From a virus (taxonomy: Duplodnaviria; Heunggongvirae; Uroviricota; Caudoviricetes): a DNA stretch of 23,042 nt. The DNA is taken from IMG/VR virus record IMGVR_UViG_2563366964_000005, positions 1 through 23,042 of that record; one strand, given 5' to 3'. The stretch's first letter is position 1. The number at the start of each line of letters is the position of its first letter. The notes below the pieces were generated by a model. The model made no database searches. It was not told the DNA's origin and saw only the letters and a list, made by a program, of their open reading frames with translations. A program made the position numbers and the translations under genes. This document shows, piece after piece, positions 1-20,725 of the stretch.

Positions 1-267
1 ATGCGTCTGATATCCCTGGGTGACCTCATCACCAATCCCGGTTCTGGGCGGCTCTCCACCTCCGACACCATCATACTTGGAGCCTTCCTTATCAGCTCCT
101 TTGTGCTCGTCTGGGTCACGGTCACCCGTTCTGAGATTGCGACTGAATTGTACTGGGCTTATCTGGGCGCGTGGGTTGCTCAGAGCCAGGCATCGAAGCA
201 CATGTCCATTAAACGAGCCAGAGAGGTGAACCATGTGGGCGATAACCCTGAAACTTCTCAAAGGTAA
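1..267 (+). CDS. 5'-truncated ORF of unknown function with one strongly hydrophobic segment (IILGAFLISSFVLVWVTV); sits directly upstream of the spanin genes, so possibly a lysis-cassette membrane protein
   Basis: Open frame runs from the window edge to a TAA at 265-267 and overlaps the Rz-like start at 233. No family recognised. Confidence 0.3.
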   Translation: MRLISLGDLITNPGSGRLSTSDTIILGAFLISSFVLVWVTVTRSEIATELYWAYLGAWVAQSQASKHMSIKRAREVNHVGDNPETSQR

Positions 268-862
268 CTGGAAGTCACTTCTGCTAATCGTCGTTCTGTC
301 GGGCGGTGGTGTATGGCTGGGAACGCTCATCACGCAATCGCGGTTGAGTGACCAGGCGCTGGCGTTCAGCAATGAAAAATCGACGCTTATCAGCGAGTTT
401 AACACGCAAAAATCACAGTGGGATCAGGAGCGTATTACCGCCGCGAACCAGTATGCGTCAGACCTTAAAGATGCGCTGGCGGCACAGCAAACCTGGCAGC
501 GTAAGGCTGACGAAATGAGTCGTCAGCTCGCGGAACAGGATGCATCCCATCAACGGGAAGTAAAAGACCTGAAAAAGAGGCTCAAAAATGCAATTAAAAG
601 CGATGGCAATACTTATACCGGTATTGGCCCTGCCAGCCTGCAACTCTGGCGTGAAGCCCTTGGCTACCCCACAGCCCAAACAGTCAACGCTGGTCACTAT
701 CTGCCAGAAACCACCGGCAGCGCTGCTGGTGATACCGGAGATGCCATCAGCGCCAGTGGCGGACTCTCTCCCTCCGGGATAGTTGGCCATAGCGCGGAAT
801 ATGGCAAATGGTGCCTGTCTCTCCGCGATCGTCTGCAAGCTATTAACGATTACTACAGGTGA
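233..862 (+). CDS. Rz-like i-spanin (inner-membrane spanin subunit)
   Basis: N-terminal transmembrane segment (SLLLIVVLSGGGVWLGTLI) followed by charged coiled-coil-like sequence; SD-like GAGG upstream of the ATG; a lipoprotein ORF is embedded in the +1 frame, the hallmark Rz/Rz1 architecture. Confidence 0.7.
   Translation: MWAITLKLLKGNWKSLLLIVVLSGGGVWLGTLITQSRLSDQALAFSNEKSTLISEFNTQKSQWDQERITAANQYASDLKDALAAQQTWQRKADEMSRQLAEQDASHQREVKDLKKRLKNAIKSDGNTYTGIGPASLQLWREALGYPTAQTVNAGHYLPETTGSAAGDTGDAISASGGLSPSGIVGHSAEYGKWCLSLRDRLQAINDYYR
588..782 (+). CDS. Rz1-like o-spanin (outer-membrane lipoprotein) embedded in the Rz-like gene
   Basis: 64 aa, entirely inside 233..862 in a different frame; signal peptide ending in lipobox-like LPAC with Cys18; proline-rich mature part; own SD (AGAGG about 7 nt upstream of ATG). 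Confidence 0.65.
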   Translation: MQLKAMAILIPVLALPACNSGVKPLATPQPKQSTLVTICQKPPAALLVIPEMPSAPVADSLPPG

Positions 863-1122
863 AAGGAGTGGACACGGTAATGACTCTCGACACGGCCTTC
901 CAGATTGCTCTGGGACTGGCCGCACTCTTTGGCGGCATTTTTATTCGCCGCCTGAATCAGGATATTCATGACCTCGAAAAAGCCGTCGAACGCATCCGCG
1001 ACGAGTATCAGCGCCGCGAAGATGCCCGGACGAACTACACAGCAATGATGGATGCGATGAAAGAGCTGCGAGCGGCCATTGAACGCATCGATAACAAACT
1101 CGACAGGAAAGCCGACAAATGA
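859..1122 (+). CDS. small membrane-anchored coiled-coil protein, function unknown (lysis-associated by position)
   Basis: GTG at 859 overlaps the Rz-like stop; alternative ATG at 880 lies downstream of AAGGAG. Predicted N-terminal TM (FQIALGLAALFGGIFI) then charged helical region. Confidence 0.5.
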   Translation: MKGVDTVMTLDTAFQIALGLAALFGGIFIRRLNQDIHDLEKAVERIRDEYQRREDARTNYTAMMDAMKELRAAIERIDNKLDRKADK

Positions 1123-1403
1123 AAGCCAGACAAAAGCGCCGTACTCGCCGTATCCCGATTGCCAGCGATGAGCAGGAAACGCTGAACCGAATCTCTGCTC
1201 AGCTCGATCGTCTGCAGATGCCAGTTAACCCCGATATCCTGGGTGGTATCAACGACAAGCTGGAGCGTATTGACTCACGTTTATCAGCCATTAATGCCGA
1301 TGCAACCCGCCATGGCGCAAAAGCCGGGGCTATCGCCGGTGGACTTACAGGCGGTCTTATTGCTGTAGCCATCCTGTTAATCCGCGCAAAACTGGAGTTA
1401 TGA
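1119..1403 (+). CDS. small tail-anchored membrane protein, function unknown
   Basis: ATGA start/stop overlap with the upstream gene; basic N-terminus, coiled-coil-like middle, C-terminal hydrophobic segment (GAIAGGLTGGLIAVAILLI). Confidence 0.5.
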   Translation: MKARQKRRTRRIPIASDEQETLNRISAQLDRLQMPVNPDILGGINDKLERIDSRLSAINADATRHGAKAGAIAGGLTGGLIAVAILLIRAKLEL

Positions 1404-3750: not shown

Positions 3751-5331
3751 ATGGTTCAAATCCTTGACCAGTATGGTCGCCCGCTCAACAAAGACGTGCT
3801 GAAAGCCCCTCAGACCGCACGCACCGTGCAGCTGAACCGGGACTGGCCGACGCATCCCTCACGCGGAATGACGATCGCCCGTTTGCCTCGTATCCTGGAG
3901 GCGGCTGAGCGCGGCGATATTTCCGCCCAGGCAGACCTCTTCGAAGATATGGTTGAGCGGGACGGCCATATTTTCTCTGAGATGGCCAAACGCAAGAATG
4001 CGTTGCTGACGCTGGACTGGAGTATCGAACCGCCGCCGAACGCCACCGCCGAAGAGAAGCAACTGGCGGCAATGGTGGCGAGCTGGTTTGCTGACCTGCA
4101 GGAAATGGAAGATATCACTCTCAATGCGGCCGAGGCGATTGGCCACGGTTTTTCCGCTCAGGAGATTGAGAAGTGGGAGCGAGACGGGAATCTGTGGTTG
4201 CCTACCCGAATCAAGTTACGCCCGCATCGCTGGTTCTGCACCACCCCGGATAAAGGTGATGAAATCCGGCTGAATAATGGGTCGATGGACGGCGAAGAAC
4301 TGTGGCCGTTCGGCTGGCTGGTCCATACGCACAATGCTAAATCTGGCTATATCGCCCAGTCCGGCCTGTACCGCGTGCTGGTCTGGCCGTACCTCTTCAA
4401 AAACTACAGCGTACGTGACCTGGCCGAGTTCCTGGAGATATACGGTCTGCCCGCGCGTATCGGTACTTATATCGCCGGGGCCACGCAGGACGAGCAGGAC
4501 AAGCTGATGGAGGCGCTTGTCACGCTTGGCCATAATGCCTCTGGTATTATTCCCGAAGGGGCCAAAATTGAGTTTAAGGAAGCGGCGAACGGCCAGTCTG
4601 ATCCCTTTATGGCCATGATTAGCTGGGCTGAGCGCACTGAATCAAAAGTTATCCTCGGTGGCACGCTGACTTCCCAGGCGGACGGTAAGTCCTCAACCAA
4701 CGCGCTGGGCGTTGTACACAATGAGGTCCGCCATGACCTGTTGACCGCTGATGCTCGCCAGATAGAGGGCTTTTATCGGGGAGTTATTCGCATGTTACTG
4801 GCGATTAACGGGTACGATGTCAGCCCACGCCGCCAGCCCAGACTGGTCTTTGATACCCGCGAGCTGGAAAATATCCAGGTCTTCGCCGAGGGCGTATCAA
4901 AGCTGGTTGGTGCGGGGATGAAGACTATCCCGGTCAGTTGGGTGCATAAAAAGATTGGTATCCCGGAACCGAAAGACAATGAAGCCGTGTTGACGCCTCC
5001 GGCCTCGCCGCTTTCGTTACAGGCACTGACGACTCAGGCAGCGGCTTCTCCGTTCCGTCATTTTACTGCGCTGAGCAGTACCGGTGAGATTACTGACCCT
5101 GCACAGGAGGCGCTGGATAACTCCCTTCAGCCAGGTGCCGCCATTAACCTGGCGATGGAAAAGCTGATCACCCCATTAGTGGCTGCGCTGCAACAAGGCC
5201 AGACGCCTGATGAGGCGATGGACATTATCGCCGCCAGCTATCCACAGCTCGATGATTCGATGCTCCGGCAGCTGCTGCACCAGGCATTGTTCGTGAGTGA
5301 GGTCTGGGGGCGACTCAATGCCGAAAGCTGA
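3751..5331 (+). CDS. portal protein, Mu gp29-like
   Basis: 526 aa; strong SD (GGAGGA) upstream; follows TerL and precedes an F-like gene; sequence character typical of Mu-type portals. Confidence 0.85.
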   Translation: MVQILDQYGRPLNKDVLKAPQTARTVQLNRDWPTHPSRGMTIARLPRILEAAERGDISAQADLFEDMVERDGHIFSEMAKRKNALLTLDWSIEPPPNATAEEKQLAAMVASWFADLQEMEDITLNAAEAIGHGFSAQEIEKWERDGNLWLPTRIKLRPHRWFCTTPDKGDEIRLNNGSMDGEELWPFGWLVHTHNAKSGYIAQSGLYRVLVWPYLFKNYSVRDLAEFLEIYGLPARIGTYIAGATQDEQDKLMEALVTLGHNASGIIPEGAKIEFKEAANGQSDPFMAMISWAERTESKVILGGTLTSQADGKSSTNALGVVHNEVRHDLLTADARQIEGFYRGVIRMLLAINGYDVSPRRQPRLVFDTRELENIQVFAEGVSKLVGAGMKTIPVSWVHKKIGIPEPKDNEAVLTPPASPLSLQALTTQAAASPFRHFTALSSTGEITDPAQEALDNSLQPGAAINLAMEKLITPLVAALQQGQTPDEAMDIIAASYPQLDDSMLRQLLHQALFVSEVWGRLNAES

Positions 5332-6571
5332 TGTTGATCTCGGGTATGCCATTGGTCTGAAGCCGGAAGAAGCCATCCGCTATTTTGAGTCTAAGGGCTA
5401 CGTCATAGGCTTTAACTGGCACGATGTTGAAGCCCGCACCCATGCCACTGAATTCACGGTCGCAGGCGTTCTTAAGCAGGATATTCTGACCGATATTCAC
5501 GGCGCTCTGCAGGCTCATCTGGAGAATGGCGGCACGCTGCGTGACTTCGAACGCCAGCTGACGCCAACCCTGATTCGTAAAGGCTGGCTGGCCGATAAAG
5601 CACGCTTAATCGCAGATGAGGATGGTGTGCTGGAGGGCAAGCAGCTGACACCACGCCGCCTGCGTACCATCTTCGAAACCAACATGCAGGCGGCGTATGG
5701 TGCCGGACGTTATGAAGAGCAGATGGCCAACGCGGAGTTTCGTCCTGTCTGGGAACGTGTGGCCGTCATGGATTTGCGTACCCGACCGCGACACGCGGCA
5801 CTGAACGGTTTTACCGCCCGCTACGATGATCCGGTCTGGCAGTTCATGTATCCGCCCGATGGCTATCATTGCCGCTGCCGTATCCGGGCACGTTCACTGG
5901 CCGAGGCTGAACGTCTTGGGATTGTGCTTAAATCCTGGGAACAGGATATCGTCACCGTCCAGCAGGCGTGGGGGCCCAATGATACCCGAGAGGTTCAGGC
6001 GCTGCGCTTTAACGGTGAGCTTTATACCCCGGATGCGGGCTTTGGTCACAATCCGGGTCAGGGCTGGCTGTCTTCTCTGGGGCAGCGTCTGATGGACCAG
6101 TCCGTCACTGCACCACCCAGAACGGCCGCGCTGGCCATCAGCGAAACACTTTCCGACCCGGCTGTATTATCTTCCGTCAGCGACGATGTACGCCGATGGG
6201 TGGATGCCGTCAGCGTTCGGGGTAAAACCAGAGGTGACCTCAGGCGTGTCGGCGGGGTTTCGCCTGACTTGCTTGACCGCCTTGAAGAGCGCGGTATTCG
6301 CCAGCCGGTCACACTCAGTATCCATGAATCAGACGTCCGTCAGGCTCCGGGGCCGATGTGGTCAGAACTTCCTGCGCTGCTGGCCAGTGACGGGGATGTC
6401 TGGCTCGATGGTGATAATTTAGTGTGGACGATGGTCGCAGACCAGGGGACTCGCGCGGTCCGGGCTGCGCCTGCTGCAGACGGCTGGCGATTGTCACTCG
6501 TCAATGGCGGCGATGTTATCCGTCCACAGGATATTGCTGATGATGCTGTATTACTGAGGCCGAAACCATGA
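5318..6571 (+). CDS. head morphogenesis protein, Mu F-like
   Basis: ORF opens at GTG 5297; preferred start is ATG 5318 downstream of a GGGGG run; overlaps the portal stop; position and sequence fit the F-like minor head protein family. Confidence 0.8.
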   Translation: MPKADVDLGYAIGLKPEEAIRYFESKGYVIGFNWHDVEARTHATEFTVAGVLKQDILTDIHGALQAHLENGGTLRDFERQLTPTLIRKGWLADKARLIADEDGVLEGKQLTPRRLRTIFETNMQAAYGAGRYEEQMANAEFRPVWERVAVMDLRTRPRHAALNGFTARYDDPVWQFMYPPDGYHCRCRIRARSLAEAERLGIVLKSWEQDIVTVQQAWGPNDTREVQALRFNGELYTPDAGFGHNPGQGWLSSLGQRLMDQSVTAPPRTAALAISETLSDPAVLSSVSDDVRRWVDAVSVRGKTRGDLRRVGGVSPDLLDRLEERGIRQPVTLSIHESDVRQAPGPMWSELPALLASDGDVWLDGDNLVWTMVADQGTRAVRAAPAADGWRLSLVNGGDVIRPQDIADDAVLLRPKP

Positions 6572-7113
6572 GTTATACCATTACCTATGATATCGGCGAC
6601 TTCGAACGTTCTCTGGGCGAGCTCATCAATAAGCTGGAGCAGCGTGAGCCGCTGATGCGGGAAATGGCAGCAGCGATGGCCGATGCGGTTGAAGAGAACT
6701 TTGCCCGCGAAGGTCGCCCGGAGTGGATGGGATGGAGTCCGGCATATGCCCGTAAACGTCATGGCGGAAAAATCCTGCAACGTTCTGGCAGGTTGGCCAA
6801 AAGTATTACGCAGTTCAGTACCAACGACGAAGCGGTTGTTGGTACTAACGTGAAATATGCCCGTATTCATCAGGAAGGCGGTGAAATCAGTATTGCCGCC
6901 AGGAGCCAGCGAGCCTATTACCGCCAGTATAAAAATGGGTCGGTTGGTAATCGGTTCGTGAAAAAGTCGCGGTCTAACTTCACCCAGTGGAATACCATTG
7001 GTGCATATAAAATTAAGATGCCCGCACGACCGTTCCTGCACCTGACCGAGGATGACGTCAGCGGGATGGAAACAACCGCTGAAAGCTATCTCCAGCGTAT
7101 TATCGATGGATAA
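6568..7113 (+). CDS. virion morphogenesis protein, Mu G-like
   Basis: 181 aa; ATGA overlap with the F-like gene; position and sequence fit the Mu G family. Confidence 0.75.
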   Translation: MSYTITYDIGDFERSLGELINKLEQREPLMREMAAAMADAVEENFAREGRPEWMGWSPAYARKRHGGKILQRSGRLAKSITQFSTNDEAVVGTNVKYARIHQEGGEISIAARSQRAYYRQYKNGSVGNRFVKKSRSNFTQWNTIGAYKIKMPARPFLHLTEDDVSGMETTAESYLQRIIDG

Positions 7114-7256
7114 GCGTAACGGCGCTGTAAGCCACGCAGACGCGTTTATCGCAAATGTGGTAGAGTGATTCGCCTCATCCCCTGTTAATCGTTTTTAAAA
7201 GGGGTTTAAAAAGCCCTGGCGATATCGTCGGGGGGCTCATTCGATTAACGGGGGAA

Positions 7257-7466
7257 GTGGTGGAAACCTTCAAGGCATTCCTGGATTATTTTACGGTGAC
7301 GCAATGGGTCATCATTGGGATCGGCTTCAGGGTGTTTCTCTGGATTCTCGATCGCCTGACCGACCGTTATTTCGAACGGCGATTCCAGAAGCGCCGCCAG
7401 TCTCTCCGGAATGAGATGACAGAAAAGCAGAAAAGCCCGCCCCACGACAACAGCCCCCACGCTTAA
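7257..7466 (+). CDS. small putative membrane protein (69 aa) in an intergenic insertion
   Basis: GTG start preceded by GGGGGAAG; one hydrophobic helix (VTQWVIIGIGFRVFLWIL) then a basic tail; lies in a ~400 bp gap between otherwise tightly packed genes. A minus-strand ORF (7245..7460) covers the same DNA, so the coding strand is uncertain. Confidence 0.3.
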   Translation: MVETFKAFLDYFTVTQWVIIGIGFRVFLWILDRLTDRYFERRFQKRRQSLRNEMTEKQKSPPHDNSPHA

Positions 7467-7520
7467 TCACTGAACCCCTTCAACTTATTCCCTTTTTAGT
7501 GGTGCTGTACGCTCAGCACC
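7463..7520 (+). promoter_or_regulatory. conserved 18-bp element (CACTGAACCCCTTCAACT, 7468-7485) plus U-rich spacer and perfect 7-bp hairpin (7501-7507/7514-7520) abutting the ATG at 7521; candidate late promoter or translational control site
   Basis: Exact 18/18 repeat of the element at 19256-19273; the same spacing to the start codon; the downstream gene has no SD. Confidence 0.5.
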
Positions 7521-17447: not shown

Positions 17448-18636
17448 AAGCTCGCAGGACAAGGTGAGCCTGATTATTGATGGCAAAGTCCACAGTTCCT
17501 GGAGTCGTTATCAGATTGATTCTGATTTTCTGGTGCCCGCTGACGCCTGGAGTGTGACGATGGGGCTACCTGATGGCGTATTCCCGGCCTCAATTGCGCG
17601 GGGCGTGCCTGTGCTGGTTCGCGTAGGGGATGACGTAGTGATGTCCGGTCGTGTGGATACTATTCAACGTCGCGTATCACGCCAGCAGGTATCTCTGGGG
17701 ATTTCTGGCCGCGATGGTTCTGCCGTCCTTGTGGATTGCGCATCTCCCGTATTCACCTCCCGTCAACTGAGCCTGGAAGAAGTTATCGCTCAGGTGGTCA
17801 GGCCGCTCGGGGTACGAAATATCCGTCTGCAGGCTGAGTCGTCGATGCAGAGCGATAAAGTCAGCGTTGAGCCAGGGGAGCGAGCCTGGGACACTCTGGA
17901 ACGCGCCGCTGCCGCCAGAGGGCTCTGGCCATGGTTTGAGCCTGACGGCACGCTGGTTATCGGTGGTCCGGATTACACGGCCGACCCGGTGGCTACTCTG
18001 GTGCTTAACCGTGATGGCCGTGGGAATAATATTCTCGACCTCAGCGATCGCTCATCTGTGAATGGCTCTTTTTCCGAACTGACCGTACTGGCTCAGGGAC
18101 ACGCTCAGGGTTCTAAGTCTTCCTCAGGGACTGAGATTATCGATGTTTACAGTGATGATGGTGACGACGACAGTGACAATGACCTGTTGACGACGGTTGG
18201 TTCCCCCGAGAGTGGTTTCCATGGTCTCCGCAGTGTCGTTCGTGACCCGAGTGTCTCCTTTTACAGACCTCAAATCATGGTTGTGGGTGATGCTGATAAC
18301 CAGGCGCAGGTTGACTATCGGGCTAAAAAAGCCATGGCAGATGCCCGGCTCAGTGGTTATGAGTTAACCGCTGTAGTGAAAGGTCATCGCATGGAGAGCG
18401 GCAAGCTCTGGGCTCCAGGTCAGCGTATTCGTGTACGCAGCGAGCCCCATGGTATCGACGATATTTTCTTTCTGATGGGCCGGGAATTTAGCGGTGGCCG
18501 CCCCGATAACACCGTCACCACGCTCAGGCTTAAAGAGGATGGTATCTGGATACCCGATGCTTATCCTAAAAAACGCAAACTGCGTAAAAGCCGCGCTAAG
18601 GTTAATAAAAAGCTGGAGATTATTGATGTGGAATAA
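17431..18636 (+). CDS. tail/baseplate hub protein, Mu P-like
   Basis: 401 aa; position; contains an acidic DDGDDDSDND tract. Confidence 0.75.
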   Translation: MPTQDKSSQDKVSLIIDGKVHSSWSRYQIDSDFLVPADAWSVTMGLPDGVFPASIARGVPVLVRVGDDVVMSGRVDTIQRRVSRQQVSLGISGRDGSAVLVDCASPVFTSRQLSLEEVIAQVVRPLGVRNIRLQAESSMQSDKVSVEPGERAWDTLERAAAARGLWPWFEPDGTLVIGGPDYTADPVATLVLNRDGRGNNILDLSDRSSVNGSFSELTVLAQGHAQGSKSSSGTEIIDVYSDDGDDDSDNDLLTTVGSPESGFHGLRSVVRDPSVSFYRPQIMVVGDADNQAQVDYRAKKAMADARLSGYELTAVVKGHRMESGKLWAPGQRIRVRSEPHGIDDIFFLMGREFSGGRPDNTVTTLRLKEDGIWIPDAYPKKRKLRKSRAKVNKKLEIIDVE

Positions 18637-19213
18637 AGTGGATCAGCGGATTAATATGGCTTTAAACCGTATCAGAAACGCATTCAGAGGCGTAATAACT
18701 CGCGTTAACAGCGCGGGGCCTGCGCAGACTATTCAGGGCAAGGGGCTTGGCCCTGAACCGTTACAGGATATAGAACTCTTTCAGCATTATGGTTTCACCT
18801 CTAATCCGCTACCTGGCACGATGGCGGTCGTGTTACCAATTAACGGTAAAACCAGCCACGGTATTGTTATTGCGACGGAGCATGGCCGCTATCGTCTGAA
18901 AGAACTGAAACCGGGAGAAGTTGCACTGTATACGGATGAAGGCTGCAATATTGTTCTTAAACGCGGGAAAATTATTGAGGCTAATTGCGATGATTTTATC
19001 GTGAATGCCAAAAATAAATATTCAGTTAATACCGCCGACTATGATGTCAACGCGACAAATAAAGCAAACTTCGATACACCGCTTCTGAAAGCAACGAATG
19101 ACCTTGCTGACGGTACATCCACGCTCAATAAGGTACGTGAAACTTATGACGACCATGACCACGAGCATGGTGGCGATGCAGGAACTACGGATAAACCTAA
19201 TCAGCTGATGTAA
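18626..19213 (+). CDS. baseplate central spike (gpV / Mu gp45-like) with His-rich apex
   Basis: The ORF track lists 18494..19213, but the likely start is the ATG at 18626 (MWNKVDQ...), 7 nt downstream of GGAG. C-terminal DHDHEHGGD resembles metal-binding apex motifs of spike proteins. Confidence 0.7.
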   Translation: MWNKVDQRINMALNRIRNAFRGVITRVNSAGPAQTIQGKGLGPEPLQDIELFQHYGFTSNPLPGTMAVVLPINGKTSHGIVIATEHGRYRLKELKPGEVALYTDEGCNIVLKRGKIIEANCDDFIVNAKNKYSVNTADYDVNATNKANFDTPLLKATNDLADGTSTLNKVRETYDDHDHEHGGDAGTTDKPNQLM

Positions 19214-19248: not shown

Positions 19249-19307
19249 ATTAACCCACTGAACCCCTTCAACTCTTACATTATTTCCATTGCCGATACTA
19301 TGTCGGC
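19249..19307 (+). promoter_or_regulatory. second copy of the conserved 18-bp element (19256-19273) plus spacer and perfect 6-bp hairpin (19290-19295/19303-19308) whose 3' arm ends on the A of the ATG at 19308
   Basis: Exact 18/18 repeat of 7468-7485; loop contains TACTAT (19296-19301), a -10-like hexamer about 7 nt upstream of the start codon; no SD. Confidence 0.5.
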
Positions 19308-19658
19308 ATGGAAATGCTAATTGACCCAGTCACCGGCGACTATACCGGTGACAGCACTGACTCCCTGGCCAATGCCGTTTATTTACGGTTAATGACGCCG
19401 CTTGGCTCATGGTGGGCGGCACCATCACTGGGGTCACTTTTGCACACGCTACAGCGGGAAAAAGATACGCCTCGCGTGCGTAAACTCGCCCGCCAGTACG
19501 CAGAGCAGGCGCTTCAGCCTATGCTGGACGATGGCAGGGCCATATCCATTGATATAACGGCAGAACGCTATCAGCCAGGCTGGCTCCTGCTGCTTATCAC
19601 TGTTACGTCTGCCGGTGTTTCACCGCAGACCTGGAAATATCCGGTTAAGGTGAGCTGA
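19308..19658 (+). CDS. baseplate protein, Mu gp46-like (gp25/GPW-type)
   Basis: 116 aa; position between the spike gene and the baseplate J-like gene. Confidence 0.6.
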   Translation: MEMLIDPVTGDYTGDSTDSLANAVYLRLMTPLGSWWAAPSLGSLLHTLQREKDTPRVRKLARQYAEQALQPMLDDGRAISIDITAERYQPGWLLLLITVTSAGVSPQTWKYPVKVS

Positions 19659-20725
19659 TGCCCTTCGTTACTAAAACAACAGCACAAATCCGCGATGAGC
19701 TGTTGCGTGATATTAAAAACCAGCTGCAACTGACTGACGATAAACTGGGTGAAGACAGCGACTGGTTCGTTCGCGCCTCCAGTGTTGCAAGTGTTGCCGA
19801 GGGGCTTTACCAGCATCAGGGCTGGATTGTTCGTCAGATTTTCCCGGATACCGCTGATGCTGAGTATCTCTACCTTCACGCGAGAACCCGAGGGCTTACC
19901 AAGAAACCCGCTAACAGCGCTTCTGGTCCTGCCACCTTTACCGGACAGCCCAACACGACAGCAGCAGCAGGGTTAGTTTTTAAGCGTGACAGCCAGGCAT
20001 GGACAACAACAGCGGAACTGACCATCGGAGCCGATGGCAAAGGCACTGTTAATGCTGTCTCGTCGGCAAAAGGCACCGCCGGTAATACAACCTCAACCAC
20101 CACTGCCATTCTCAGCACGACGCCATCGGGCCTCGACAGTACGGTGACCGTCGGGATGATGTCTGGTGGCACTGACGAAGAGACTGATGCTGAGTTACTG
20201 GCCCGTTTACTCGATGTTATTCGCCGACCGCCTGCAGGCGGCAATAAATATGACTATAAGCGCTGGGCCCTTGAAGTTGCAGGTGTATCAGCTGCGTATG
20301 TCTATCCTCTGCGTCGGGGTCTTGGCACCGTTGATATTGTGATCACCTCTGCCGGTGGTCTGCCGTCTCAGGATGTTATTGATCGTACTCAGGCTCATAT
20401 TGATGACGTACGCCCGGTGACGGCTAAGAACGCCCTGGTTATTGCCCCGACCATTGTCAATTTTGACGTTTCAGTCCAGGTATCTCTGGATGGTCTGACA
20501 CTAGCCGATGCTACTACGCAAATTATCGCTTCTCTTCAGGATGACGACAGTCGCCGTGAACCTGCCGTGCCGTTTATCCGTAGCCAGGCCGGGACACTGA
20601 TATCACTGATTCCAGGAATTACTGACCGCGAATTTATCGCGCCTGCAGCCAATATCTTCCCGGTCGTCAATGAGGAGAAAGTGGAGTGGCTTCGACTCGG
20701 TAATGTGGAGGTTGGATTACTGTGA
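19658..20725 (+). CDS. baseplate J-like protein, Mu gp47-like
   Basis: 355 aa; ATGA overlap with upstream gene; position and size. Confidence 0.8.
   Translation: MPFVTKTTAQIRDELLRDIKNQLQLTDDKLGEDSDWFVRASSVASVAEGLYQHQGWIVRQIFPDTADAEYLYLHARTRGLTKKPANSASGPATFTGQPNTTAAAGLVFKRDSQAWTTTAELTIGADGKGTVNAVSSAKGTAGNTTSTTTAILSTTPSGLDSTVTVGMMSGGTDEETDAELLARLLDVIRRPPAGGNKYDYKRWALEVAGVSAAYVYPLRRGLGTVDIVITSAGGLPSQDVIDRTQAHIDDVRPVTAKNALVIAPTIVNFDVSVQVSLDGLTLADATTQIIASLQDDDSRREPAVPFIRSQAGTLISLIPGITDREFIAPAANIFPVVNEEKVEWLRLGNVEVGLL

Follow-up and report, generated by a model that had tools for sequence, protein, structure and literature searches.

The gap between the G-like and I-like genes of an enterobacterial Mu-like prophage is a composite of conserved non-coding elements and a small gene of probable phage 21 holin ancestry

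The 23,042-nucleotide stretch of IMG/VR record IMGVR_UViG_2563366964_000005 analysed here (positions 1 to 23,042, hereafter the window) covers the late part of the genome of a Mu-like prophage, whose genes were called via Pfam. Between the stop codon of its G-like virion morphogenesis gene (7113) and the start of its I-like head protease/scaffold gene (7521) lies a gap of 407 bp. This gap is a composite of three modules and not one 400-bp insertion, because both of its ends are kept in relatives that have gaps of 222-233 bp and no open reading frame (ORF). The three modules are best explained together as a block resembling phage Mu's strong gyrase site (SGS), an accessory gene derived from the holin gene S of phage 21 (S21) and a late promoter of the Mor/C type, an overall explanation to which slightly less than even confidence is attached. 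The role proposed for the small gene is more tentative: its product would be a single-pass protein of the membrane, co-transcribed with the late genes and translated weakly, that adjusts the timing of lysis.

Organization of the G–I gap

Relatives of the window were gathered via the I protein and via the small protein, and their G–I spacers were measured and aligned. Spacers with a homolog of the small ORF are 367-420 bp long (367-408 bp in the window and L011 clades, the L011-clade I proteins being 84-86% identical to the window I). The ORF-less spacers of L019, L020, L021 and L009, whose I proteins are 76-80% identical to that of the window, measure 222 bp, and the likewise ORF-less spacer of Klebsiella phage ST405-OXA48phi1.1 measures 233 bp (I protein 55% identical). 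Two segments are common to both kinds of spacer, namely the first ~115 bp (7114-~7230) and the last ~55 bp (7466-7520), and the difference between them is confined to ~230 bp in the middle (roughly 7231-7461). The gap is mostly conserved, putatively regulatory DNA that comprises a predicted late promoter as well as a block placed like the gyrase site of Mu. The initial annotation had drawn attention to a long gap in an otherwise tightly packed head module, which is correct since adjacent genes abut or overlap here, and the comparison with related Mu-like prophages that it called for indeed reveals an ORF that is variably present. Its description of the gap as an insertion of about 400 bp has to be abandoned: only the central ~230 bp differs among relatives, and the tree of I proteins points to an ancestral segment that some lineages have lost. 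Queries with the spacer DNA found no close match in complete E. coli genomes and GenBank phages, a Rfam scan of 6900-7700 gave no match, and no terminator was found on the + strand across 6500-8000, on either side of the small gene.

Coding signature, distribution and age of the small gene

The segment 7260-7466 is, with high confidence, a real gene of S21 ancestry. Over the 46 codons that can be aligned between the window gene and its L011 ortholog, 18, 10 and 29 differences fall at codon positions 1, 2 and 3, respectively, and the proportions of non-synonymous (pN) and synonymous (pS) differences are 0.30 and 0.83. An excess of third-position changes and a pN lower than pS characterize every informative pair among five lineages, with pN/pS ratios of 0.29-0.71 (uncorrected, pS being saturated). 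Intact ORFs of 60-69 amino acids (aa) are found in the G–I gap of L010, L011, L032, L033 and L034, that of L010 having two base differences only from the window gene. A profile search of 1.84 billion representative proteins yielded 17 matches, including three further short relatives (P0011, P0012, P0013) that are each encoded between G and I of another Mu-like prophage. The 69-aa ORF initially proposed (7257-7466), with one membrane helix and a basic tail, is borne out on both counts: the product has one hydrophobic segment and a basic tail, and conservation at the codon level across five lineages identifies the ORF as a gene.

The ORF on the opposite strand (7245-7460) was considered as a gene and rejected; it is open in both clades, but its omega is near 1 and most change falls at its first codon position. 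Note that PGAP annotates a 77-aa hypothetical protein opposite the small gene in E. coli FDAARGOS_1303 (NZ_CP070045.1; L026 2253-2486). Judged from the sequence comparisons, this antisense annotation is probably wrong.

The small gene appears to be ancestral in the clade and to have been lost at least two times, with the caveat of mosaic recombination. The ORF-bearing lineages form a paraphyletic group in the tree of I proteins, where L032 pairs with the ORF-less Klebsiella phage and L019-L021 nest among ORF-bearing clades. Five lineages keep the gene at its position, their I proteins being no more than 55-57% identical at the extreme, and its GC content (0.531) is like that of the window (0.538); these features, together with the paraphyly, indicate an old gene and not a recent insertion. 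Prophages of the same type do have a low-GC cargo slot, located between the Mor-family gene and the lys promoter (L024 1500-2009, GC 36%; L025 1656-2030, GC 40%; phage 53.5%). In this slot L024 and L025 code for different signal-peptide proteins (169 and 124 aa) while the two prophages are otherwise near-identical. A search for remnants of the small gene in ORF-less spacers gave two short matches (p 0.002 and 0.016) in the wrong order; this is no more than suggestive of scrambled remnants, which may persist in L021. Several copies have a disrupted frame: P0002, L005 and L006 lose the stop codon via a +1 C and L014 has an altered tail, most frameshifts leaving the first 47 residues intact.

A holin-related protein that lacks the first transmembrane domain

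The L011-type ortholog scores 35.3 bits against Pfam PF04971 (Phage_holin_2_1, 'Bacteriophage P21 holin S'), for which the cut-off is 26, with its residues 11-54 corresponding to positions 20-63 of the 64 in the profile; the positional orthologs as a group score 34.5-37.2 bits. The PHROG holin families agree with the holin assignment. A tblastn search with the ortholog against GenBank phages matched 454 records (best E 7e-7) and, among the matches listed, all 30 that are annotated are holin or lysis S genes (phi80 gp18, mEp460, Stx phages). The window protein itself is 29% identical to the phi80 holin over 49 aa by BLASTP (pairwise E 3e-8), and hhalign pairs the G–I family with S21-type holins at 98.4% (E 5e-15, template columns 12-67 of 74). 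NCBI labels the L011 type 'phage holin' and the window type 'hypothetical protein'. PADLOC and NCBIfam scans of the small protein gave no match.

The homology to S21 (S21-68/S21-71) extends over the end of transmembrane domain (TMD) 1, the loop, TMD2 and the basic carboxyl tail of these 60-70-aa proteins. TMD1 is missing: the small protein starts at the equivalent of S21-68 residue ~18 and covers residues ~18-68. What it retains is the aromatic patch (FKAFLDYF versus YWFLQLLD), the loop, a helix like TMD2 and the basic tail; it shares with S21 a Q/W before the helix, an IG and an LT(N/D)xYF followed by a basic cluster. In the family alignment the motifs flanking the helix, FKAFLDYF and LT(D/N)RYF, are conserved and the helix core is variable. 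The net charge in the window protein is -1 on the amino side of the hydrophobic segment and +4 on its carboxyl side, and the protein is therefore predicted from its sequence to be single-pass with an N-out/C-in topology. It differs from S21 in having one TMD instead of two, without the signal-anchor-release (SAR) TMD1 that acts in timing, in its zipper positions (G..R..W), in the location of its gene ~7 kb from the lysis cassette and in the company of a soluble endolysin that a pinhole would not release in this Mu-like phage.

Truncation of S21-68 in the laboratory provides a close parallel. Pores are still formed by variants in which the aromatic patch is kept, TMD2 suffices for transient ones and the carboxyl tail can be dispensed with (bioRxiv 10.1101/2021.04.20.440580), the latter fitting the natural tail frameshift variants P0002 and L014. 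With its natural start at residue ~18 and its aromatic patch, a feature that contributes in part to pore stability, the small protein is like the engineered 18-68 and 24-68 truncations of that study (bioRxiv 10.1101/2021.04.20.440580). The engineered proteins keep the native TMD2, unlike the small protein, in which the TMD core is divergent and includes a charged residue; pore formation by it is therefore not assured.

The conserved 5' block

The block 7114-~7230 is kept in all relatives and contains the motifs CTGTAAG, GACGCGTT, TGTGGTAGAGTGATTCG (7156-7172) and the quasi-palindrome CGTTTTTAAAAGGGGTTTAAAAAG (7190-7213), the latter two each occurring once in the window. A core of 22 bases, CGTTTTTAAAAGCGGTTTAAAA, is identical in L011, L021, L034 and Klebsiella phage ST405-OXA48phi1.1, the window having G instead of C at the centre. 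The initial annotation had noticed at 7199-7206 a partial reverse-strand match, AAGGGGTT, to an 18-bp element described below. The match is present, but it is not a copy of that element because it forms the centre of the conserved A/T palindrome and reads AAGCGGTT in other lineages.

The most likely function of the block is that of a central gyrase site, a reading we consider evenly balanced in which gyrase binding would follow from position, centrality and A/T phasing. The gyrase cut annotated in the Mu record lies 20 nt past the G stop, and the conserved block likewise begins directly after G. Its centre is at 48.3-49.0% of five prophage contigs, compared with 48.7% for the Mu SGS. The phasing of A/T at 10-11 bp ranks the block among the top 0.3-1.1% of the window and the Mu right arm among the top 0.13-1.3% of Mu, neither being the top site of its genome. 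CGTTTTTAAAAGGGGTTTAAAAAG bears a resemblance to the Mu SGS right arm, CCGGTTTAAAAATCCC; in an nhmmer search of Mu with a profile of the block, this arm (17930-17905) tied as best among weak matches (E=1, not significant). Two reviews state that the Mu SGS requires both its right arm and a central position (PMC10052514, PMC6379681).

The same block may also provide a weak extended -10 promoter. The TGgTAGAGT that had been singled out as an extended -10-like sequence is present at 7158-7166, and TGnTAGAGT is nearly invariant in the window, L011, L019-L021, L032 and L034 lineages but missing from both L033 and the Klebsiella phage. Contrary to what its initial description as part of an inserted unit implied, the motif does not go with the ORF specifically, because it is kept in ORF-less L019-L021 and missing in ORF-bearing L033. 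A two-hexamer promoter scan did not call the motif at 7158-7166.

A probable late promoter upstream of gene I

The segment 7468-7520 is, to judge from its sequence, in all probability a Mor/C-type late promoter of the I operon that would depend on an activator of this family. The 18-bp element CACTGAACCCCTTCAACT, reported initially at the 3' end of the gap, is confirmed there (7468-7485) and is identical to 19256-19273 before gp46, 0 such matches being expected by chance; L025, a near-identical prophage, has a third exact copy (2025-2042) 59 nt ahead of the endolysin start. The element is kept ahead of I and ahead of lys in all relatives. Exactly 22 nt after each copy there is a -10-like hexamer, which reads AATACT (lys), TACGCT (7508-7513, I) and TACTAT (19296-19301, gp46). 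Of the hexamer before I (TAnnnT), nine lineages share the T, the A and the last T without exception, the middle bases being variable, and (A/G)ATACT is likewise kept at this offset in the lys promoters of relatives. With the predicted start site, the element of the I promoter would span -52 to -35 with a centre at about -43.5 to -44.5; no TTGACA-like -35 hexamer is found at this promoter. Mu promoters that depend on C have an imperfect 16-19-bp dyad with its centre near -43.5 and a -10 that can be recognised, but no -35 (PMC2582627). A Mor-family gene (PF08765) is found outside the window, at L025 1213-1647, just upstream of the endolysin-side element.

The -10 hexamers of the I and gp46 promoters occupy the loops of hairpins (Table 1). 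Across lineages, 82.5% of the cells of the inverted repeat before I pair. The distance from the -10 hexamer to the ATG is 7 nt for I and 6 nt for gp46, and no Shine-Dalgarno (SD) sequence precedes either ATG, which leads us to predict that both operons are transcribed as leaderless or nearly leaderless mRNAs, transcription of I starting at 7520/7521.

The lys promoter (L025 2065-2103) differs in that its leader of ~24 nt starts in a strong hairpin that contains the SD. A hairpin directly upstream of the I start is also found in Mu-like phages that are only distantly related, such as a prophage like Sp18 of O157:H7 (L029 2050-2228), where CCGGC-TTATGCT-GCCGG-A-ATG has TATGCT in the loop. In Mu (L023 2000-2056) a CTGCTCA-N10-TGAGCAG hairpin and then a SD precede I. 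A single gene of the Mor/C family was found in L025 1-2100, right after gemA and before the lysis genes, while Mu has two (mor and C); only ~1.2 kb upstream of the L025 gene is covered, and a second activator is possible.

Proposed expression of the small gene and alternative explanations

A lysis cassette belonging to the phage itself is located at window positions 1-1400 and upstream of them, ~6-7 kb from the small gene. ORF-less relatives have the same DUF2644/GH19 cassette, so the G–I gene is accessory and not the main holin. Its late co-transcription is plausible, the gene sharing its strand with the late genes and no + strand terminator having been found in 6500-8000. In the favoured explanation, read-through from the first late operon (lys to G) would transcribe the gene, and its translation would be weak owing to the GTG start and to a predicted occlusion of its SD by a 14-bp stem. 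This stem has z-scores of -3.1 to -4.0 and is strong only in the window clade, partial in L032 and absent in L011, L033 and L034. The protein would accumulate in the inner membrane, self-associate via its TMD2-like helix and perturb the membrane potential or holin triggering, so acting as an accessory lysis-timing factor beside the phage's own GH19 endolysin, DUF2644 holin candidate and spanins. Such a dispensable role fits the loss or frameshifting of the small gene in some relatives.

A number of observations weigh against this explanation. The window protein scores 16.0 bits against PF04971 (E 0.012; residues 4-47 at profile positions 20-63 of 64), below the cut-off. The TMD2 of S21 uses a zipper of small residues (G/S) in pinhole packing. 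The glycine-zipper positions read G, R and W in the window copy, which has an Arg in the middle of the helix, and G, G and K in the L011 type; this mid-helix Arg and the poor conservation of the TMD core make S21-like pinhole formation doubtful. The small gene is frameshifted in L018 and truncated in P0003, and both the relatives that do not have it and Mu lyse without it. The similarity of the 5' block to the Mu SGS is not significant, and a scan for gyrase sites with a 133-bp consensus (exact or S/W match) missed the SGS in Mu itself and was discarded. Covariation in the hairpin before I is no better than in shuffles. The conserved extended -10-like motif upstream could instead drive the small gene in the lysogen. 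Expression in the lysogen is also suggested by two TMD1-less S21 relatives, P0014 and P0018 (L035 4001-4213 and L036 4001-4183), which are encoded in reverse orientation, against the late operon, between the lysozyme and Rz genes of lambdoid prophages that also code for a canonical PF04971 holin of 70-72 aa; P0018 has its own TATAAT promoter and a GAGG SD.

These last points are the starting ground of the main competing explanation, a moron expressed from the prophage, which we regard as unlikely though worth serious consideration. Transcription in the lysogen from 7158-7166 would lead to a protein directed, from the membrane, against other phages: it would work by superinfection exclusion, by abortive infection or as a decoy with a dominant-negative effect, co-assembling with the S21-type holins of lambdoid phages, whose lysis it would block or mistime. 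The promoter-like motif is conserved ~90 nt upstream of the small gene, the SD-sequestering stem would hold a potentially toxic protein at a low level, and the position of the P0014 and P0018 genes, antisense beside a PF04971 holin, is a layout classically seen in genes that lysogens express. The TMD core is divergent from the pinhole motif and its flanking motifs are kept, enterobacterial lambdoid and Stx phages commonly have S21-type holins, and the gene is variably present in a gap known as a cargo slot (PMC3993853). To be set against this are the equal conservation of the motif in ORF-less relatives and its loss in ORF-bearing L033, a GC content that does not deviate as in the low-GC slot of the same phage, the orientation shared with the late genes, and the failure to find a terminator or a PADLOC match. 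The moron proposed in the initial annotation therefore survives as a variably present accessory gene in a documented cargo slot; it does not as a foreign transcription unit, the gene being old, of phage-like GC, without terminator and a member of a known holin family. The lambdoid paralogs allow a bolder and quite improbable extension, in which TMD1-less S21 paralogs, in Mu-like G–I gaps and antisense in lambdoid cassettes, would form a distinct class of prophage 'lysis-interference' proteins made in the lysogen and co-assembling with TMD2 of the S21-type pinholins of competing or co-resident lambdoid/Stx phages, the lysis of which they would block or mistime.

The other explanations have a much lower probability. 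The gene could be a decaying fragment of a captured lambdoid holin gene, only the non-coding elements of the gap being of importance. Frame-disrupting variants are frequent (P0002, L005, L006, P0003, L018, L014), the gene is lost in L019-L021 and in the Klebsiella phage, L021 may have scrambled remnants and the window copy is under the Pfam threshold; a functionless remnant is nonetheless hard to reconcile with the pN lower than pS and the third-position bias in every informative pair of five lineages, with an ORF length and FKAFLDYF and LT(D/N)RYF motifs kept despite I proteins at 55-57% identity, and with frameshifts that mostly spare the first 47 residues, and we hold it very improbable. 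Even less credence is given to an addiction module of the type I toxin-antitoxin kind, where a holin-like toxin held off by mRNA structure and an antisense RNA would stabilise the prophage. The protein is small, hydrophobic and holin-related, its SD lies within the 14-bp stem, and the - strand has a weak promoter-like site (7312-7285) and a hairpin followed by a T-run near 7246-7216. The fold of that strand is however no better than shuffles (z -0.33), its -35 is not kept in the L011 clade, its -10 coincides with conserved codons, the SD stem is absent in three of the five lineages and Rfam gives no match. An anti-CRISPR or another soluble anti-defence protein was suggested by analogy with Pseudomonas Mu-like phages (JBD30, DMS3, MP29 group), which have anti-CRISPR genes between the G homolog and the protease/scaffold gene (PMC3993853). 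The ORF is likewise small and in the same genomic slot, but its product is basic, has homology to holins and is expected to be embedded in the membrane, no other ORF of the gap is conserved, no aca-type helix-turn-helix gene accompanies it and the late-promoter element starts one base after its stop codon, so that this analogy is hardly credible. The initial idea of anti-defence cargo consequently finds no backing at the family level, neither a PADLOC defence-family match nor an aca-type regulator being present.

Relation to known systems and novelty

The G–I region of the window is like that of Mu in its place between G and I at the centre of the genome, in the A/T-tract-rich segment after G and in the hairpin upstream of I. 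Its late promoter resembles the C-dependent Mu P_I in having no -35 and an activator site whose centre is near -43.5 (PMC2582627). The Mu spacer differs in measuring 196 bp and carrying no gene, the sequence similarity being weak and not significant; Mu I has a leader and a SD, whereas here the -10 is 7 nt from the ATG, and the sequence of the activator element is different. The Pseudomonas anti-CRISPR locus has accessory genes in the same slot (PMC3993853), but they code for soluble Acr proteins and an Aca repressor with a strong early promoter, unlike the single holin-derived predicted membrane protein without a regulator gene found here. A small additional membrane protein whose gene lies away from the lysis cassette, among structural genes, also brings to mind LysF1b/LysA2b of mycobacteriophages and LydC/LydD of P1, which have been reported as single-TMD holin-like proteins that modulate lysis (PMC13056207, bioRxiv 10.64898/2026.08.27.747656, PMC9025707). 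Their sequences are unrelated to the small protein and their hosts differ, the likeness being one of concept alone.

The PF04971 family and the non-coding elements of the gap belong to kinds that are already known. New are the TMD1-less architecture, its fixed G–I position across enterobacterial Mu-like prophages of one clade and the paralogs encoded antisense within lambdoid lysis cassettes; no published description of them was found in the literature searched. Leaderless mRNAs of the I and baseplate operons of the clade, from promoters with the -10 in a hairpin loop, may be a further novelty. An unexplained gap is thereby converted into a three-module map for this clade, and the annotation of both the window-type 'hypothetical protein' and the antisense PGAP frame in FDAARGOS_1303 is corrected. 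The small protein is a natural single-helix derivative of the best-studied pinholin that has retained the aromatic patch and is encoded outside any lysis cassette. It offers a direct test case for whether TMD2-only holin relatives act as timers, antiholins or decoys in phages whose lysis control is still debated; Mu itself has been reported to be without a holin. The fixed spacing between promoter and ATG makes leaderless expression of late genes testable, and in the conserved block there is a candidate for a second naturally occurring strong gyrase site, to be compared with that of Mu. If true, lysis interference by TMD1-less paralogs would amount to inter-phage warfare at the holin step.

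Features of the window and neighbouring genes

The features of the gap and the genes called around it are compiled in Table 1.

Table 1. Coordinates of features in the G–I gap and of other late genes (positions in the window).
Feature	Position	Strand	Remarks
Two-TMD DUF2644 protein, holin candidate	1-267		Lysis cassette
i-spanin-like gene	233-862		N-terminal transmembrane segment, predicted coiled coil
Embedded out-of-frame o-spanin	588-782		Lipobox LPAC; Rz/Rz1-type pair with i-spanin
GH19 endolysin, soluble			Lysis cassette; no SAR domain found
Membrane-tethered 87-aa protein			Lysis cassette
F	5297-6571		Pfam
G-like virion morphogenesis gene	6568-7113	+	Left gap border; PF05069 2.2e-27; phrog_26
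Conserved non-coding block	7114-7230		Candidate central SGS equivalent; kept in all relatives, ORF-less ones included
TGTGGTAGAGTGATTCG, extended -10-like motif	7156-7172	+	TG 7158-7159, TAGAGT 7161-7166; promoter of small gene or gyrase-site core
Predicted long-range 14-bp stem	7177-7255 (7177-7190 with 7242-7255)	+	Would bury SD GGGGGA of small gene in transcript from ~7173; minimum free energy -39.4 kcal/mol
A/T-rich quasi-palindrome CGTTTTTAAAAGGGGTTTAAAAAG	7190-7213		Most conserved non-coding motif
Small gene, 68 aa from GTG 7260 (alternative GTG 7257, 69 aa)	7260-7466	+	TMD1-less homolog of phage 21 S (pinholin) family
18-bp candidate late-activator (Mor/C-family) binding element CACTGAACCCCTTCAACT	7468-7485	+	I-operon promoter; repeated exact copies
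Inverted repeat GGTGCTG / CAGCACC	7501-7520	+	Loop is -10 hexamer TACGCT (7508-7513); fold z -3.8; abuts I start codon
I-like head protease/scaffold gene	7521-8639	+	Right gap border; PF10123 2.5e-94
T	9058-9966		Pfam
gp45	18494-19213		Pfam
Twin late promoter before gp46-like baseplate gene	19256-19310	+	Element 19256-19273; -10 TACTAT in loop of hairpin 19290-19308; ATG 19308; z -5.35
gp46	19308-19658		Pfam
Baseplate_J gene	19658-20725		Pfam

Note that in L033, the prophage that carries P0013, the I frame (about 4229-4730) has 167 codons compared with ~370 elsewhere, while the small ORF is intact. The short frame may result from a frameshift or belong to a decaying prophage.

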